From positions 192,001 to 256,000 of the forward strand of contig JBCBUK010000003.1 of assembly GCA_039818205.1 (NCBI GenBank): 64,000 bases of DNA. Direction: 5' to 3'. A model generated the notes under the pieces. It was not told the origin of the DNA, searched no databases, and was given only the letters and a program-made list of their open reading frames with translations. The stretch is from Verrucomicrobiota bacterium. GTDB taxonomy: Bacteria; Verrucomicrobiota; Verrucomicrobiia; Opitutales; Cerasicoccaceae. Shown here in pieces: positions 56,955 to 64,000 of the stretch. The position numbers and the translations under genes are program-made. Numbering within the stretch: position 1 is the first letter of the stretch; every line of letters starts with the position of its first letter.

Positions 56955-57359
56955 ATGATCCAAAATTACCGAAGTAGACATTCTCTTCCTGTTGGTATTC
57001 GTGAGGCCGTTAATTACCGCTTATATCCTGTATTTAACAACGGTTCGACCGAGCTCGATTTCGAGTTTGATCACGGATTACTTCTAGGGAGAATACACTG
57101 GATTCAGTCACTATCTGATTGGTTCCATTTAATTGATGAAGATGATCGAGAACACTATTTGCTTAATCTAGAACAAGCGTATGAGGCAGATTACTTAATT
57201 TCAGCATATAGGGTTCATATTAATAAAAATTCAGAGTATTGGATAATTGATTATGCCGAATGCGGCATGGGCGATTCAGATTACATACAGGGAACCATTC
57301 TTTTGGCCGAAAGCATCGACGATGTGGCCAGGGTTATGAAGAAGTTCGTTGGTAAGTAG
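56955..57359 (+). CDS. Hypothetical protein, PAS-like fold
   Basis: WFHLIDEDDREHY...YRVHINKNSEYWIID...IQGT resembles PAS_3/PAC; AT-rich ORF. Confidence 0.55.
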   Translation: MIQNYRSRHSLPVGIREAVNYRLYPVFNNGSTELDFEFDHGLLLGRIHWIQSLSDWFHLIDEDDREHYLLNLEQAYEADYLISAYRVHINKNSEYWIIDYAECGMGDSDYIQGTILLAESIDDVARVMKKFVGK

Positions 57360-57452: not shown

Positions 57453-60400
57453 TTATTGAAAATCTGCAGTGGATAACTGGAGTGCTTGATTGGTCATTTT
57501 TGCCAAGTCACGGTGTAAACTATCCCAGTCACTGTTGATATTCGATTCTCGAATGGATTCGATCAGTGACACGATTGAATCGTTTGGAAACATGCGAGCC
57601 GCTGGTGTCATGTCGTGGAGAATGTCGCGGATTTGATCCTGATCCTGTGTTTTTGACGCTGCTTCAATTCGATCGCAGAATTCGACTAGTGTGGCGCGCA
57701 GTTCGTCCATCAACTCACGGAGCTTATCCGGGTCTCCTTCGGCCAGGTAGGCGAGTGCGTTCCAAGCGTCATTTTTAGGTGCCGAAGGCTTAGGTGGTTT
57801 AGTGGATTGTTTGCGTCCGGTTTCGACCGCGGTCAGAAGCTCGGTGGGCGAGAACGGTTTGGGGACAAAACCGGTGACGCCGGCTTGGACGATGCGGGGG
57901 CGGTCGTTGTCGGCGACATAGGCGCTCATTGCGATAATTGGGCGGGCTTTGTGGGCCTCGATGGCTCGAATGTCGCGGGCGAGCTCGACTCCGTTTTTGT
58001 CCGGGAGGTTGACATCGACAAGAATGAAGTCCCACTCGCGATCGTTGAGACGTTCCATCGTTTCCTGGGCGGTGCCCGTCATGGTCACCGACGCACCGAC
58101 GTTTTCAAGAATACCTCGGACGACCATTTGATTGTAGGGCTCGTCCTCAACGACCAGGACAATTGAACCGCGCAGGGCTTCTCCATTGGGATTCTCCTGA
58201 TGGGGCTGACTCTCGCTGAGTGGCGCCAAGGTTTGCATGGGGACCTGGACGCGAAACTGAGTTCCGCTTGAATCGGTTTTCTCGAGACTCAACTTGCCAC
58301 CCAGGAGCTTGCTCAGGCGATCTGCGATGCTTAGTCCGAGGCCAATGCCCTTGGTCATCGAGGTGACATTGGAGCCCTGCTGAAACTGCTCAAATATCTT
58401 ATCCTGAGCCTCGGGTGGGATGCCTTTGCCGGTATCCTCGACGAGAAAATCCAACCGAATGCGGTCGTTGCGGTCAGTGGCTTCCCAAAATGCATGGACA
58501 CTTACGGATCCGTCATCGGTAAACTTGATCGCATTGGAGGTCAGGTTGAAGAGAATCTGTTTGAGTTTACCGGAGTCGCCATGGAGCGGCGGGCAAGAGT
58601 CGAAGTGGCGAATCACTTCCAATCTCAGGCCTTTGTCGGTCGCCAATCGACTATGGAGTGAGTTCAACTCGCCGAGGACATTCTCCAGCTCAAATGATCC
58701 TTCGATAATTTTGACCTGTCCATTCTCGATCGCCGCGAAGTCGAGCATGCCGTCCAGTAGGATCTTCAACTGCTCGGCGGTCGAAAGCAGGTGGTTCATC
58801 CGATTGTCCGGCTTCTTCTTACGCTCATCAATCATCAGGTGAGCCAGCCCAACGATTCCGTTCATCGGATTGCGGATCTCGTGGCTTACGTGCGCGAGGA
58901 AGCGATTCTTTGATGTGTTGGCCTGCGCAAGGCGGATGTTCATACGTTCGAGTTCAATGGTGCGACTGCGAACGGCATCTTCCAATGCGACGTTGGCGGT
59001 GCGCAGGCGTCGGGTGCGCCACTGGACAAAGGTAAATACGAGGGCGATGCCGATAGCCGTGAAGACCGCGTAGGCGAGGGCAGTCCGATACCATGGTGGT
59101 AAGACGGTGAACGGTATCGCCGCCACAAGCTTGGTCGGTTGGCCATCGATAATGCCGCGCACCTCAAACTGATAATCGCCTTCCCGAATGTTGGTGTATT
59201 CCTTGAACGGGTTTGAGTTCGGCTTACTCCAATTGCTTTCAAAGCCCACTAGGCGAGTCTGGTACTCCATGGATTTCGTGCCGTAATAGGGTAACGAAAA
59301 TTCAAAGGCGGCTTGCTGCAATGGATAGCTTATTTTTTCCATGGACTCGGCTCGTTGCTCCTGCGTTTGTCCTTCGTCATCAACGAAAATCTCGTTGAAG
59401 AATTTTGCTTCCGAAATGATCGGTCGCCGGTTGAGGTCGTTCGGTACCTTGCTAAGATCTTCCCGAATGATTCCACCGCTGCCACCAAACCACGCCGTGT
59501 TATTATCTTGCTCGACAAAGATACAGTGTAGCGGTGATAGGACATTTACGCCGTCGGAAGCGACTTCGGTGTAGGTCGGCGCTCCATTCTCGGCCGACCT
59601 ATCGATCTTCGCCAATTGGTTTTTCTCTAAGTCCGCGTCCGGGTAAGCAATCCAAACAGCTCGGTCATTGTTAAAGAAATTGGTCGAGTAAGGGTCTTTG
59701 CCGAGATCGCTTGGCGAGTCGGGGACTTGTCTCCATTCGAGGTCAGAATGACTTTGATAGAATACGCCAGCATTGGTTATCGCCAGTAGTACCCCGTCGA
59801 GGTTGGTGGTATATGCCCAGATGAATGCTTCCCCGTTCTCGGGGTTGTTGACGGGCTCGTAAGTTGGGGTGAGCTCAAGGTCCTCAATGTCGCGTGCCAT
59901 GGCACGCTGTAAGCCTGCATCAACCGACCCAAAGTAATAGTAGCTGTCATAGCCATAATCAATGGTCCACATGTTTCCGGGAAATGGCTTCTCGGCAATG
60001 ATCTCAATGGTGTCATCCACCCACTGGCCGATCATAAAGTTTTTGTAGGAGGTGATGTAGAGCAGGTCTGCTGTCTCAGAAAAGCTAACGGTGCTGATGT
60101 CTTGGTTGTACTCGAAGAGCTTTACCAATCCATCTCCCGATGTTAGATCGATTCCGTCTGCTCGGCAGAATAGGACACCTTTGTCGGTTCGCTCCATCGT
60201 CCATCCAGGAGAGCGGTTTTCTCCCAAACGATCCCATGAATGCGGAAGTAACTGTTCTTCTCGTGGGCGCAGCTCATAAATTCCAGTGAACCCACCAGCA
60301 TACTTGCGCCCTTCAAACTCATTGATGTCTAAGATGTATCCCGAATCGAGACCTTGATCATTGTTGAACTTAGTCCACGACTTCGGGTTTGTTATGCAGC

Positions 60401-61388
60401 TAATTCCGCTTTCGTGGCATGCCCAGATGTTCCCATCTTTGTCCTCAAACAAATCGAAAACGATATTGCTAAGCAGTCCTTCATTCTCCGTCCATCGAGT
60501 GACGAATTTACCGTCGCGGTCGAAAATGAGGATTCCTAAACTGTGGATCGACGAAGCAAAAAGACCATCTTCAAGTTCAATTGTTTTATATATTAACTGC
60601 TCTTTTGCAGCAGGTGTTATGTCGGTTTTAAAAGCCTCAAGTTTGTTGTCTTCAAACTTGTAAAAACCATTCCGAAAGGTGCTAAGAATTTCTACGCCTT
60701 CATTTGGTTTCGAAATGAAATTGATGGCATCATCGCCAATCTCTTCTTTGTCTATGATGACCGGAAACCCTTTTTCGATTATTTGCCGTATACCAACGCC
60801 GCGTTGGCTAATCAGTGGGCCTGCCTGAGAGTTGTGCAGGGTAATGCGTCGCGCAGTGGGAAAGGGGAAGACTTCGATTTCACCATCGGTATATAGCACC
60901 AGGTGTTCTTCGGCAACAAACGCAATAATTTCGCCGATCGGTACTACCTGCCATATCGTTCCTAGTTGCAGGTCGGGATTTGGGAGTTCAGGGATTAAGG
61001 AGTGATAGTCACTGATCTTTCCGTTTGAGATATCGAAGTATCCTAACTCGTTATTCCCTCCAATCCATATTCGATCGCCATTGCCAATGTATAGGGTCCT
61101 GACGGTCGAGCCCGTCCTGTGTTGTCTCCAGGTCACGCCATCAAACTCTAACAAGCCATCGTTGTTAGCAAAGAACAGACGGCCATCGTCGCTTTGAGCG
61201 GCTTGCCAGTTGCGTCCGTCCGAACGAGTCCTCTCTGCTGGGAAGGATTGTATTGTGGGAGCTCCAAGGTCGCGCGCAAAGCACGAACCGGCAATGGTCT
61301 GCCAGATGATAAGCAGGCCCCAAAATATGGGTGTATGCTGTCCTTTTAAAAAAGTCACCGTCTTGCTACTTTGATCGCGTAGTCTCAT
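57453..61388 (-). CDS. Hybrid sensor histidine kinase: beta-propeller + Y_Y_Y periplasmic sensor, TM, HisKA, HATPase, receiver, Hpt-like
   Basis: Repeats FEDKDGNIW / GLLEFDG; YQTRLVGFESNWS...YTNIREGDYQFEV; PPWY; SHEIRNPMNGI; NLTSNAIKFT; VEDTGKGI; GIGLGL; LVVEDE, ILVDVNLPD, VPKP; C-terminal ILHDM. Confidence 0.93.
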   Translation of the reverse strand: MRLRDQSSKTVTFLKGQHTPIFWGLLIIWQTIAGSCFARDLGAPTIQSFPAERTRSDGRNWQAAQSDDGRLFFANNDGLLEFDGVTWRQHRTGSTVRTLYIGNGDRIWIGGNNELGYFDISNGKISDYHSLIPELPNPDLQLGTIWQVVPIGEIIAFVAEEHLVLYTDGEIEVFPFPTARRITLHNSQAGPLISQRGVGIRQIIEKGFPVIIDKEEIGDDAINFISKPNEGVEILSTFRNGFYKFEDNKLEAFKTDITPAAKEQLIYKTIELEDGLFASSIHSLGILIFDRDGKFVTRWTENEGLLSNIVFDLFEDKDGNIWACHESGISCITNPKSWTKFNNDQGLDSGYILDINEFEGRKYAGGFTGIYELRPREEQLLPHSWDRLGENRSPGWTMERTDKGVLFCRADGIDLTSGDGLVKLFEYNQDISTVSFSETADLLYITSYKNFMIGQWVDDTIEIIAEKPFPGNMWTIDYGYDSYYYFGSVDAGLQRAMARDIEDLELTPTYEPVNNPENGEAFIWAYTTNLDGVLLAITNAGVFYQSHSDLEWRQVPDSPSDLGKDPYSTNFFNNDRAVWIAYPDADLEKNQLAKIDRSAENGAPTYTEVASDGVNVLSPLHCIFVEQDNNTAWFGGSGGIIREDLSKVPNDLNRRPIISEAKFFNEIFVDDEGQTQEQRAESMEKISYPLQQAAFEFSLPYYGTKSMEYQTRLVGFESNWSKPNSNPFKEYTNIREGDYQFEVRGIIDGQPTKLVAAIPFTVLPPWYRTALAYAVFTAIGIALVFTFVQWRTRRLRTANVALEDAVRSRTIELERMNIRLAQANTSKNRFLAHVSHEIRNPMNGIVGLAHLMIDERKKKPDNRMNHLLSTAEQLKILLDGMLDFAAIENGQVKIIEGSFELENVLGELNSLHSRLATDKGLRLEVIRHFDSCPPLHGDSGKLKQILFNLTSNAIKFTDDGSVSVHAFWEATDRNDRIRLDFLVEDTGKGIPPEAQDKIFEQFQQGSNVTSMTKGIGLGLSIADRLSKLLGGKLSLEKTDSSGTQFRVQVPMQTLAPLSESQPHQENPNGEALRGSIVLVVEDEPYNQMVVRGILENVGASVTMTGTAQETMERLNDREWDFILVDVNLPDKNGVELARDIRAIEAHKARPIIAMSAYVADNDRPRIVQAGVTGFVPKPFSPTELLTAVETGRKQSTKPPKPSAPKNDAWNALAYLAEGDPDKLRELMDELRATLVEFCDRIEAASKTQDQDQIRDILHDMTPAARMFPNDSIVSLIESIRESNINSDWDSLHRDLAKMTNQALQLSTADFQ

Positions 61389-61432
61389 TGAAGATTACAC
61401 TAATCAACATCCAACACACAAAAGCATCAATA

Positions 61433-61552
61433 ATGAAAAAAATACTCACTGCGTTCTTCGAAACCGTAAAATACAATCTCGGTTATCGTTCCAGCGCTGA
61501 TCTACCCGCAGTAGAAACCAAGGCATGGCCTTCGTTCCCTTGCGGATTCTAA
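61433..61552 (+). CDS. Putative RiPP precursor peptide, 39 aa
   Basis: MKKILTAFFETVKYNLGYRSSADLPAVETKAWPSFPCGF from ATG 61433, directly upstream of a YcaO-like gene; Ser/Cys in the C-terminal segment. Confidence 0.7.
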   Translation: MKKILTAFFETVKYNLGYRSSADLPAVETKAWPSFPCGF

Positions 61553-61589
61553 GACCGGGTTAAGCAAACGTCATTACTGCTGCAAAGCG

Positions 61590-61622
61590 GTGCCGCTGCC
61601 CCTTCAGACCGGGCAGCGGCAC
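61590..61622 (+). promoter_or_regulatory. Strong intercistronic stem-loop between peptide and YcaO genes
   Basis: GTGCCGCTGCCC (61590-61601), 9-nt loop, GGGCAGCGGCAC (61611-61622); perfect 12-bp stem with no long U-tract. Confidence 0.75.
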
Positions 61623-61649
61623 TTAAATAAACAAAACAAATAAATCCTA

Positions 61650-62570
61650 ATGTTAAAATCCATGAATCTGGCTCCATTGAAGTTTCGCGATGTGTTGGCA
61701 AGCGATGGTGGCCCAATCCGTACGGTTGATGTTGGTACGGAAACGATTCTGGGCCGGGACCAATATTCGGCCCATGCCTATTTATGTGAGGACCTTTACG
61801 TTAAGCGACAGACGTCTGCCGTAATCACCAAGATGCCAGACGGCGCGGGAACCGCATCGGACCCAAACACCGCAAAGTTTCGAGCAATCTCTGAAGCTCT
61901 GGAGCGCTGGGCGTTCGGGCAATGCTCTATCATTGAAAGCTATAAGAAGGAGCTCGGATTCGACTATGATCCGACGACCAATGGGATGGGAGCCTTCCCC
62001 GGGCTATTTGATACGCCAGCGCGCCTTGCCGCCGAGCGCGAGGCGATTGAGCGTCATTGCTTGGTTCTTTGGTGGGAAGGCTTTCTCGATGTAACGAGTA
62101 TCGCGGACCCATTTCCCGGTGTTCGGGGAATCCAGATCGAAAATCCCTTTAGCGATGATATTGTCGTGTTGCTTTGGCAGTTTGTTGACGATCGTTTTTA
62201 TATCTATGGTTTCGGTCTGGGAACGACGATGGACGATGCCTGCTGGCGGGCGGGCGTTGAAATGTATCGCACCGGTAAGATTACTCGATCGCACTATGCG
62301 AAAAACGATTCAATCGACGAGGCCTACTTCAGTGAGTTTGAACACCTCTTCGAGAAGCGAATCCTTTTCTATTCACGGCCCGATGGTTTTATTCAACTGC
62401 TTGAGCGTTTGGAAACACGACCGATAAAGCGGTATCCTGGCTCGCCGGACATTATTGTGGATCGCAAGGTTACCGGCCCCTGGGATCGTTTTGTAACGGT
62501 GTGGCGCGTTGTCTATCGACAGCCTAGTCGTGAATTCGCCAGTGACCGCGCCGACTATTTCTTTTGGTGA
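61650..62570 (+). CDS. Compact stand-alone YcaO-like protein
   Basis: YcaO ATP/Mg motifs in order: DGAG...AISEALER, TTNGMGA, EREAIERH, WRAGVE; 306 aa. Confidence 0.8.
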   Translation: MLKSMNLAPLKFRDVLASDGGPIRTVDVGTETILGRDQYSAHAYLCEDLYVKRQTSAVITKMPDGAGTASDPNTAKFRAISEALERWAFGQCSIIESYKKELGFDYDPTTNGMGAFPGLFDTPARLAAEREAIERHCLVLWWEGFLDVTSIADPFPGVRGIQIENPFSDDIVVLLWQFVDDRFYIYGFGLGTTMDDACWRAGVEMYRTGKITRSHYAKNDSIDEAYFSEFEHLFEKRILFYSRPDGFIQLLERLETRPIKRYPGSPDIIVDRKVTGPWDRFVTVWRVVYRQPSREFASDRADYFFW

Positions 62571-62618: not shown

Positions 62619-64000
62619 TTAGAACTGCTTGCTTATGGCACCATAGACAAAGCGGTTCTGAATAGAGTATAGGGAAGTGTCGTAGCCGTCGGCGAAAGCG
62701 CCGGCGGCGAACGGCGGCGATTCATCGAAGACATTGTCAACGCCGACCGTAACAGTTGTGCCATCTAGAATCTCGCTTTCGGTGTTCTTGAACTCGTAGC
62801 TAGCCACCAGGTTTACCTTCACGTACTCCTCAACCGTACGCGGGACTCCTCCAAGGGTGAAGCTGCTGTCATCATCATAGGATCCAATGTATTGAACGGT
62901 AGCTCCTATGGACGCATCGTATACAAATAGGTAGACGCTGGCCAAGCCCTTCCAGCGAGGGATCGCACCTGGGCTCAAATTGTTTGAACGTTTATCGACG
63001 AATCCGCCAGCAAATGAGAGTTCTCCAACACCGGGAACTTCGGCATCATAGCTTAGCACTTGGTTGACTCCGATCGACGCCAAGGTTCGGATGTTTTCCG
63101 TGATCGAGTAGTCATATTCAATGCGGTAGTCCAAGCCTTGGGTTGTGATTCGCGAGGCGTTGAAATAACGGGAGTTCACAAAGATGACGGGTCCCATGGG
63201 GCCAGCGCGCACGACGTCGTTGGGATTGTTTTGGTCCAAGGTAAACTGTGCACCATTGGCAATCGCGTCATCAACGTTCAGGTAGTAGTAGTCCACTCGG
63301 AAGGCGAGGCCTTCAACCGGCTCGGGTTCCCAGATGACACTAGCCGAAACGCTTTGTGAGGTTTCCGGATCGAGTGACGGGTTTCCACGTAGGAAGGTCG
63401 GGATAGGGGTTCCCGGTGCCGTTGCTCCCGTTGGGTCGACGAGGATGGGAAAGTCAAAGGTTTGGCTGGCATAGGATTCATACAAGGTCGGCGCACGAAA
63501 GCCGGTGCTGTACGAAGCGCGGAGTGTGACCGTTTCTACCGGCTTTAAGCGAAGCGCAACCTTCCATGAAAGATTGCTGTAACCGTTTGGCGCAGATAGA
63601 CCGGTGACGGGGTCATTGCCGTTGTCATCAAATGTTTCGAACCGCAGCCCGAGACTGAGATCCAAGTTCTGTGCGAGGGGAACATCGTGGTGGGGAGCGA
63701 GGATCGGCACGTATGTTTCACCAAAGAAGGCGAAGACATTGCGCTGCCCACTAAAGGGTTGATTGAAGCCTGCGGCTCCGAGGTTCTGGCCGGTTGACCA
63801 AAGCACATCGGGTGTGTTGTCGATGGACTCGTAACGGTATTCGAAACCAATGGCACCATCTAATGCGCCTGCCGGTAGGTCTATGATCTTACCCGACACT
63901 TTGGCGTCATAGGTAAGCATGTTTTCGAATAGATCATTGTGTGGCTCAACGGCTGCTGTTTGAAGTGCCGTGTAGTTGTTAAAGCTGATTCCCGCATTGT
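62619..64000 (-). CDS. TonB-dependent receptor, C-terminal barrel (5' part outside window)
   Basis: LRASYSTGFRAPTL, GNPSLDPETS, GVDNVFD..PP, C-terminal YGAISKQF. Confidence 0.93.
   Translation of the reverse strand, partial: NAGISFNNYTALQTAAVEPHNDLFENMLTYDAKVSGKIIDLPAGALDGAIGFEYRYESIDNTPDVLWSTGQNLGAAGFNQPFSGQRNVFAFFGETYVPILAPHHDVPLAQNLDLSLGLRFETFDDNGNDPVTGLSAPNGYSNLSWKVALRLKPVETVTLRASYSTGFRAPTLYESYASQTFDFPILVDPTGATAPGTPIPTFLRGNPSLDPETSQSVSASVIWEPEPVEGLAFRVDYYYLNVDDAIANGAQFTLDQNNPNDVVRAGPMGPVIFVNSRYFNASRITTQGLDYRIEYDYSITENIRTLASIGVNQVLSYDAEVPGVGELSFAGGFVDKRSNNLSPGAIPRWKGLASVYLFVYDASIGATVQYIGSYDDDSSFTLGGVPRTVEEYVKVNLVASYEFKNTESEILDGTTVTVGVDNVFDESPPFAAGAFADGYDTSLYSIQNRFVYGAISKQF

Follow-up and report, generated by a model that had tools for sequence, protein, structure and literature searches.

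A conserved precursor-peptide gene beside a hybrid kinase and a compact YcaO in Opitutales: a candidate peptide-signalling cassette

The 39-codon open reading frame described here is a genuine, conserved gene under purifying selection. It lies in a 64,000-nucleotide stretch of a contig from a marine member of the Opitutales (Verrucomicrobiota; JBCBUK010000003.1, positions 192,001 to 256,000), hereafter the window, and belongs to a cassette in which a divergently transcribed propeller-type hybrid kinase, the precursor gene and a stand-alone YcaO of about 300 aa stand in fixed order, often accompanied by a LuxR-type regulator; of 401 genomes from the order, 67 have this cassette. Arguing from sequence, we consider it probable on balance that the peptide is an agr/Com-like signal, likely azoline-modified, in a diderm. 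The features of the locus are collected in Table 1.

Table 1. Features of the locus, with positions numbered from the first nucleotide of the window.
Feature	Position	Strand	Description
Precursor peptide gene	61433..61552	+	39 aa, C-terminal WPSFPCGF; translation, orthologues, selection
Leader, residues 1-19	61433..61489	+	Weakly amphipathic; clade alignment and profile match to short marine leaders
Predicted core WPSFPCGF	61526..61549	+	Inferred boundaries
Stand-alone compact YcaO	61650..62570	+	306 aa from first ATG; 302 aa from ATG 61662; ends DYFFW
Degenerate YACC-N8-GGTR match	61318..61333	.	115 nt upstream of precursor ATG, inside kinase 5' coding region; 2.4 bits
13-bp hairpin between precursor and YcaO	61589..61623	+	z -3.98, 0/200 shuffles
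Hybrid histidine kinase	57453..61388	-	1311 aa; Reg_prop, Y_Y_Y, HisKA, HATPase, receiver, weak Hpt
TonB-dependent receptor, 3' part	62619..64000	-	Whole protein 917 aa; converges on YcaO

The precursor gene and its family

The original prediction held that an ORF beginning at the ATG at 61433 encodes a 39-aa peptide ending in WPSFPCGF, and the sequence translates exactly so. A longer, 73-aa ORF with a GTG start (61331-61552), which the prediction had noted as overlapping the kinase gene, does overlap it and shares the frame of the 39-aa ORF; because an in-frame stop lies within 34 codons upstream of the ATG in all five relatives, we reject the GTG and take the ATG to be the real start. Orthologues of 39 aa are found at the matching position in four further genomes of the genus, and one of 40 aa in a sister genus. 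The conservation at the codon level that had been proposed as a check is evident among the five 39-codon genes, with pS of 0.54-0.98 against pN of 0.26-0.43 across the 10 pairs and with 156, 114 and 234 differences at codon positions one, two and three, the third varying most. Stops are present in both alternative frames of these genes, and their 60-nt flanks are not conserved (ungapped identity of 0.15-0.43). Loss of the ORF from relatives that keep the YcaO, which would have spoken against the prediction, was looked for and not seen. The peptide belongs to no Pfam or NCBIfam family, and no family scored above its cut-off for 10 precursors from the wider family; no Shine-Dalgarno-like sequence precedes the ATG, and scans for sigma-70 promoters and terminators gave results at chance level.

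The prediction had also described an amphipathic N-terminal leader and a C-terminal core with two tandem aromatic-Pro-(Ser/Cys) triads. The division into leader and core is conserved and tied to the neighboring YcaO across the order, and most of the core motif is kept in the genus (P33, S/T34, F/Y/W35, P36 and C/T37), where the four relatives end in APPTYPTEV, AWPSYPCEV, APPTWPCEV and AYPTFPTEV; the exception is the first aromatic residue, position 32 being W, P, W, P or Y. Across the wider clade set position 37 is C, S or T, and in the leader M1, K3, Y14, N15 and G17 are invariant among 11 clade members. The motif is rare in this genome, as only five of 21,735 ORFs (six-frame, ATG, 30-60 aa) end in aromatic-P-[STC]-aromatic-P-[STC], and all five are the peptide or its relatives. 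The amphipathic helix fares less well, its moment being marginal, with 4.5% of shuffles equally high.

We gathered 135 YcaO loci, 107 of them distinct. From a single ORF outside Cerasicoccus we built a leader profile, with which we scanned the 100 loci whose flank extends to 300 nt. This profile recovers a precursor in 92 of the 100 loci together with 17 second copies, and the best of 376 downstream decoys reaches 5.9 bits, one true leader aside. It fails on the clade that includes the window peptide, which gives no match, its five relatives scoring between -1.8 and 5.4 bits. Profile-profile comparison with hhalign nonetheless aligns the clade leader with those of a marine subgroup with short leaders (92%, E 6e-7) and, weakly, with the remaining family (45%), and it is by position and these profile-profile matches that the clade peptide would be tied to the precursor family. 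When a profile of 82 precursors was run against 401 whole genomes, many of which had contributed training rows, 46 of the 48 matches lay less than 800 nt upstream of a short YcaO on the same strand. Kin are not independent, and the family counts are therefore overstated.

Tandem Pro-(Cys/Ser/Thr) is a trait of the family. Among 95 de-duplicated cores 50 contain Pro-Cys (13.3 in shuffled cores) and 23 contain P[CST]x1-2P[CST] (2.1 in shuffled cores); Pro directly precedes 70 of about 156 Cys residues, and in eight precursors the core is tandemly repeated two to four times. Cys, Ser and Thr interchange at identical core positions, and a proline ahead of such interchangeable residues is what a cyclodehydratase substrate would allow. 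Cys is missing from 14 of the 95 cores, mostly those of second precursors in two-precursor loci. Where it is present (81 cores), the last Cys lies exactly four residues from the C-terminus in 16 cores and is followed by a tail of 7-8 residues in 29; in the window peptide it is two from the end.

The leaders vary in character. The most hydrophobic 12 residues have a hydropathy of 0.76 in the window leader (with E10 and K13 inside), 0.67-1.57 in the clade and 2.23 at the family median, the signal peptides of the kinases standing at 2.17. Judged by hydropathy rather than by a signal-peptide predictor, the window leader lacks an uncharged hydrophobic h-region, and the clade retains the cassette without a Sec-like leader.

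Some loci depart from the one-precursor arrangement. L043, L054, L056, L058, L061 and others have two tandem precursors, of which the first ends in Cys plus 3-4 residues and the second is mostly Cys-free; in this two-precursor clade a PAS hybrid kinase follows the YcaO, with a near-palindrome upstream of that kinase. Another locus has a second leader-bearing ORF downstream of the YcaO with a very short Cys-free tail (L069:1942-2088), and genome G008 contains an orphan clade precursor away from the YcaO (L153:1480-1629), with a TonB receptor about 1 kb away that is similar at its end to the cassette receptor.

The compact YcaO and the rest of the cassette

The window YcaO scores 23.2 bits against PF02624, below the curated cut-off of 25.7; many of its relatives carry the family, and its closest named relatives are Cerasicoccus proteins (60-63%). 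Its structure model (pLDDT 95) aligns with McbD over 264 residues (Z 16.7, rmsd 4.2), followed by a Methanopyrus YcaO (Z 16.1), LynD (15.6) and MusD (14.8). The 14 best structure matches are all YcaO proteins (Z 9.6-16.7), the first non-YcaO has Z 6.1, and Foldseek is concordant; judging from the model, the window enzyme has the YcaO fold. When the YcaO profile was searched against the sequences of solved structures, no match had an E-value below 0.7. Among 86 relatives (numbering from ATG 61662) E78, E81 and E130 are invariant, R82, E127, R131, E200 and R203 are at least 90% conserved, and position 196 is R or K in 75. These are conserved Glu/Arg motif residues that we take to be Mg-ATP ligands, an assumption that the profile search of solved structures backs only weakly. 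The family C-terminus is F[FLY][WFL] and there is no PxPxP tail. As far as range ends can tell, the alignment with McbD stops at model residue 302 and McbD residue 396, those with LynD, TruD and MusD stop at the same model residue and at the final residues of these enzymes, and the archaeal thioamide enzymes align only as far as model residues 295-296; McbD Pro396 is the proposed general base (part of PMC6395948).

Short YcaOs of this kind are present in the same number of genomes of the order as the cassette (67 of 401), and all 22 matches in a 301-genome sample of the phylum fall within the order. At E < 1e-30 the YcaO family matches 326 cluster representatives, and a Bdellovibrionota cluster in the Atlas listing is a look-alike. 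This genome has one YcaO match only, a weak second PF02624 match sitting in an unrelated 502-aa frame. A TfuA partner (PF07812) gave no match in the genome (completeness 99.97; the control matched), nor were TldD or C39 families found there, and neither an E1-like/RRE partner nor a dehydrogenase is among the neighbor families that recur in the 107 loci. In genus g18 several genomes have two short YcaOs, the second match stopping 7-15 positions before the conserved C-terminal tail, and in G158, a genome of that genus, the YcaO match contains four in-frame TGA codons.

The kinase and precursor genes lie head to head with their start codons 44 nt apart. A divergent propeller hybrid kinase is directly upstream in 74 of the 84 loci with 1.2 kb of flank, and further off in three of the ten misses. 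The cores of 36 full-length cassette kinases fall together on one side of a branch (100/98) that separates them from the other kinases of this genome, in a tree in which one 'other' row duplicates a prophage row. All six Reg_prop/Y_Y_Y-type kinases seen in the genome, and that of the minority allele described below, adjoin a precursor; the remaining three Y_Y_Y matches are not kinases. A LuxR-type regulator is nearby in 27 of 107 loci, and for all 22 linked regulators compared the best match among the 9-12 paralogues is the cassette regulator of this genome, which lies beyond the window (C3 257430-258062) and diverges from the TonB receptor. Such a receptor adjoins the cassette in 13 of the 107 loci, and no protease, transporter, immunity or export gene recurs among them.

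Like the core, the sensor is hypervariable. In three genus pairs it is 29-37% identical, compared with 64-70% for the TonB receptor and 74-77% for the regulator, and within the genus the YcaO and the kinase core are about 60-65% identical. Sensor domains generally diverge fast, and because a 134-aa neighbor of no known family that converges on the kinase (56955-57359 in the window) has diverged equally, with 32-38% identity in three genus genomes, the divergence of the sensor is only suggestive.

Two putative regulatory elements accompany the precursor. A motif search found the exact palindrome YACC-N8-GGTR in 27 of 76 precursor upstream regions, compared with 0.46 in shuffled sequences and 0-3 for other spacers, and the corresponding matrix reaches at least 10 bits in 40 of the 76 but in only five of 197 other genes; the boxes cluster at -61 to -64 (12), -84 to -86 (5) and -105 to -110 (21). 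In four of six clade members the best site lies at -110 to -115, although the match in the window is degenerate and 136 sites elsewhere in this genome score at least 11 bits. The palindrome is absent from the prophage modules described below, from all six regions examined before the TonB receptor and from all but one of 24 before regulators. Palindromes of this kind suit dimeric regulators of the LuxR/NarL type, and the LuxR-type regulator likely binds the predicted box upstream of the precursor. Elsewhere in the genome a 14.6-bit match (C2:80542) lies just upstream of another LuxR-type regulator (C2:80594-81265). The second element is the hairpin between precursor and YcaO; 20 of 31 such spacers have z < -2 under lenient mononucleotide shuffles, and the hairpin is likely a stabilizer or attenuator that would hold the precursor above the level of the enzyme.

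Copies in prophage-like elements and a minority allele

A profile of six clade peptides identifies six more copies in the assembly. Five of these (on contigs C29, C13, C1, C33 and C30) each come after a propeller-type kinase gene and point toward a convergent repressor-like gene, which has a PHROG or Pfam match in four cases, one of them weak; none is accompanied by a YcaO. In three of the five loci a receiver-only protein and an integrase lie upstream; contig ends truncate the other two. On the far side of the repressor come genes for phage recombination and replication, and by integrase, repressor and early genes these five elements are prophage-like. Four other small contigs, which the assembly does not join to the modules, carry terminase and portal genes. 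Two further CI-like repressors are found at the end of C22 (L187:18852-19814) and the start of C28 (L196:3-1025), on contigs with terminase and portal genes, and further modules may be hidden in assembly gaps.

Three of the prophage cores are near that of the host (WPSFPSGF twice, and WPSWPSGF), and two resemble those of other hosts in the genus (G[FW]GTFPCEV plus a tail). The C29 and C13 copies share about 80% DNA identity with the host precursor gene and its 5' flank, while their sensors are only about 21% identical to that of the host. We considered whether the prophage kinases are plain copies of the cassette kinase; this is not supported, as their cores group apart on long branches. At L136 and L137 the stop codon of the kinase gene runs into the start codon of the peptide gene (TAATG), and the final codons of the kinase are letter-identical to the non-coding 5' flank of the host gene, which points to exchange of DNA between host and prophage, in one direction or the other.

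The evidence for these modules comes from this one genome. IMG/VR was scanned with alignments of the prophage kinases, of the peptides and of the YcaOs and with a single prophage kinase; no module emerged, only six weak kinase-domain matches of which the one inspected was unrelated; annotated phages gave generic kinase matches only, and plasmids no YcaO. The C1 prophage sensor matched only itself, and a survey of 200 other genomes, with four candidates scored in each, yielded no prophage-type kinase.

The sixth copy is on the 894-nt contig C54 (L138:1-894), a low-depth allele with the core FPSWPSGF. Its promoter and both 5' ends are about 96% identical to the window locus, but its core and kinase sensor have diverged, the sensor being identical at 101 of 157 positions after a near-identical signal region (34 of 38). 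The pieces belonging to C54 have a depth of 3-5, compared with 30 in the possible source run, and we reject a second chromosomal copy on this ground; C54 seems to represent a second signal type, from a closely related strain living alongside.

Proposed circuit, alternatives and relation to known systems

In the circuit that we favor, the YcaO would bind the leader of the precursor, the predicted substrate relation, and with ATP would cyclodehydrate Ser34 and/or Cys37 onto the preceding prolines, the predicted azoline chemistry. A peptidase, or the YcaO itself as with MusD, would free the core, the original prediction placing the putative cleavage near TKA/W, and the core would reach the periplasm or medium and there be sensed by the head-to-head propeller kinase, a pairing of ligand and receptor that is likewise predicted. 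The activated kinase would switch on the LuxR-type regulator, raising expression of the precursor and ycaO in a putative positive feedback, and the prophage elements, whether they make, mimic or monitor the signal, would depend on the one YcaO that the host has. A fuller version, which we put forward tentatively and think rather unlikely to hold in its entirety, is that of an undescribed class of diderm peptide quorum sensing in which a minimal YcaO heterocyclizes a hypervariable Pro-Cys/Ser/Thr core to give strain-specific signals read by a co-diversifying propeller kinase, and in which temperate phages encode look-alike precursors, borrow the only YcaO of the host and link a kinase of their own to the choice between lysis and lysogeny.

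The same circuit could employ a different chemistry, with the YcaO activating a backbone amide or the C-terminus and an upstream Ser, Thr or Cys, or a freed amine, closing a small macrocycle, whether or not the tail is lost, to give an AIP-like lactone, thiolactone or amidine. A Cys four residues from the C-terminus corresponds to the ring size of staphylococcal AIPs and the cores of this form speak for such a ring, but the 7-8-residue tails are as common and the window Cys is placed differently; moreover, Pro is strongly favored at the position just ahead of the nucleophile, as would suit attack on the neighboring carbonyl, and the C-terminus of the model tracks those of McbD and LynD, though that of MusD too. 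While the lack of a protease in the cassette, the existence of a YcaO-like ATP-dependent peptidase in MusD (part of PMC10885120) and the partner-free bottromycin YcaOs, one of which forms a macroamidine (part of 10.1101/2020.05.04.076059), all lend something to the macrocycle, we regard it as improbable. It is similarly improbable that the modified peptide is an effector, either a metal chelator or a toxin, with the kinase sensing a glycan, a metal or the like and the TonB receptor importing the product. Cys-rich, repeated cores and the TonB receptors beside some cassettes and near the orphan precursor of G008 would suit this reading, and Bacteroides Reg_prop/Y_Y_Y sensors bind sugars; against it, most loci have no TonB receptor and no recurring immunity or export gene, the cores are hypervariable, the prophage modules retain peptide and kinase and drop the YcaO and the receptor, and in the minority allele core and sensor have both changed, although the stretch separating them is still 96% identical.

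Less probable again is that the peptide, small and either membrane-associated or exported, regulates the kinase without being modified, the YcaO having another substrate. The signal-peptide-like hydropathy of the family leaders, the five prophage modules with no YcaO and the Cys-free cores are consistent with such a regulator, but nearly all genome-wide matches of the family lie directly upstream of a YcaO, tandem core repeats and enrichment of Pro before the nucleophile are traits of precursors, and the clade leader is not signal-like. That the ORF is a chance reading of intergenic DNA has virtually no probability, since the lack of a Pfam/NCBIfam match and of a Shine-Dalgarno-like sequence weighs little beside the codon-level selection, fixed length and unconserved flanks, which refute it, and the six relatives in the assembly.

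We found no description of the cassette in the literature searched, a search outside which most subscription journals fall. Peptide quorum sensing read by kinases has been described mainly in Gram-positives, and YcaO products mainly as toxins or antibiotics; if true, the proposed circuit would amount both to a new class of RiPPs, made by a YcaO that is very small and has no partner, and to a peptide language used by diderms, in a three-gene cassette found order-wide in abundant soil, freshwater and marine Verrucomicrobia. The genome offers one enzyme with seven candidate natural substrates that include single core swaps (Cys/Ser, Trp/Phe), as well as two naturally occurring alleles, and the five candidate receptors that phages carry next to repressors would bear on how the temperate phages of Gram-negative hosts read population density.

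Among YcaO systems, the cassette enzyme resembles microcin B17 McbBCD and the cyanobactin enzymes LynD/TruD in its predicted fold, with McbD and LynD among its best structural matches, and resembles the azoline YcaOs in its EALER/EAIER/RAxxE-type motifs, its Cys/Ser/Thr cores and its multi-core precursors; judged by range ends, its C-terminus may also align with the catalytic tail. It differs from them in its size of about 300 aa, in being only 12-16% identical, in ending in F[FLY][WFL] rather than PxPxP, in having no E1-like partner, dehydrogenase, protease or exporter and in its tie to a kinase. The system would be a YcaO RiPP in which three features of LAP/TOMM are missing, namely the partner, the dehydrogenase and the proline tail. 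Bottromycin YcaOs and MusD provide precedents for partner-free YcaOs and for YcaO-driven peptide cleavage (parts of 10.1101/2020.05.04.076059 and PMC10885120), although their precursors and gene contexts are different and the precedent is a functional one.

Phage-borne peptide signalling is also known, both in phiCDHM1, which carries agrDBC (part of PMC3901668), and in arbitrium (part of PMC7790227), and there as here temperate elements carry a propeptide and a likely receptor, in our case beside a repressor. phiCDHM1 has its own maturase and no regulator, whereas the prophage-like elements here have a receiver-only protein and no maturase; in arbitrium the receptor is intracellular and the peptides are unmodified, and both examples are from Gram-positive hosts.

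The closest functional parallels are the two systems of peptide quorum sensing with a membrane kinase, ComQXPA of Bacillus subtilis (part of PMC10075063) and agr of staphylococci and clostridia (parts of PMC10885120 and PMC3901668). The cassette shares with both the linkage of precursor, maturase, kinase and regulator, a conserved leader with a variable core and a fast-diverging sensor. A candidate autoregulatory box, clear in the family and degenerate in the window, would be a further likeness. The leader of AgrD is amphipathic, and that of the present clade is marginally so. The differences are that the cassette maturase, the only enzyme in the locus, would be a YcaO and not AgrB or ComQ, that the host is a diderm of the Opitutales, that the receptor is a hybrid kinase with a Reg_prop/Y_Y_Y sensor, and that there is no export gene. 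The cassette, known here from its sequence, would work in the manner of ComQXPA or agr while being a member of neither.
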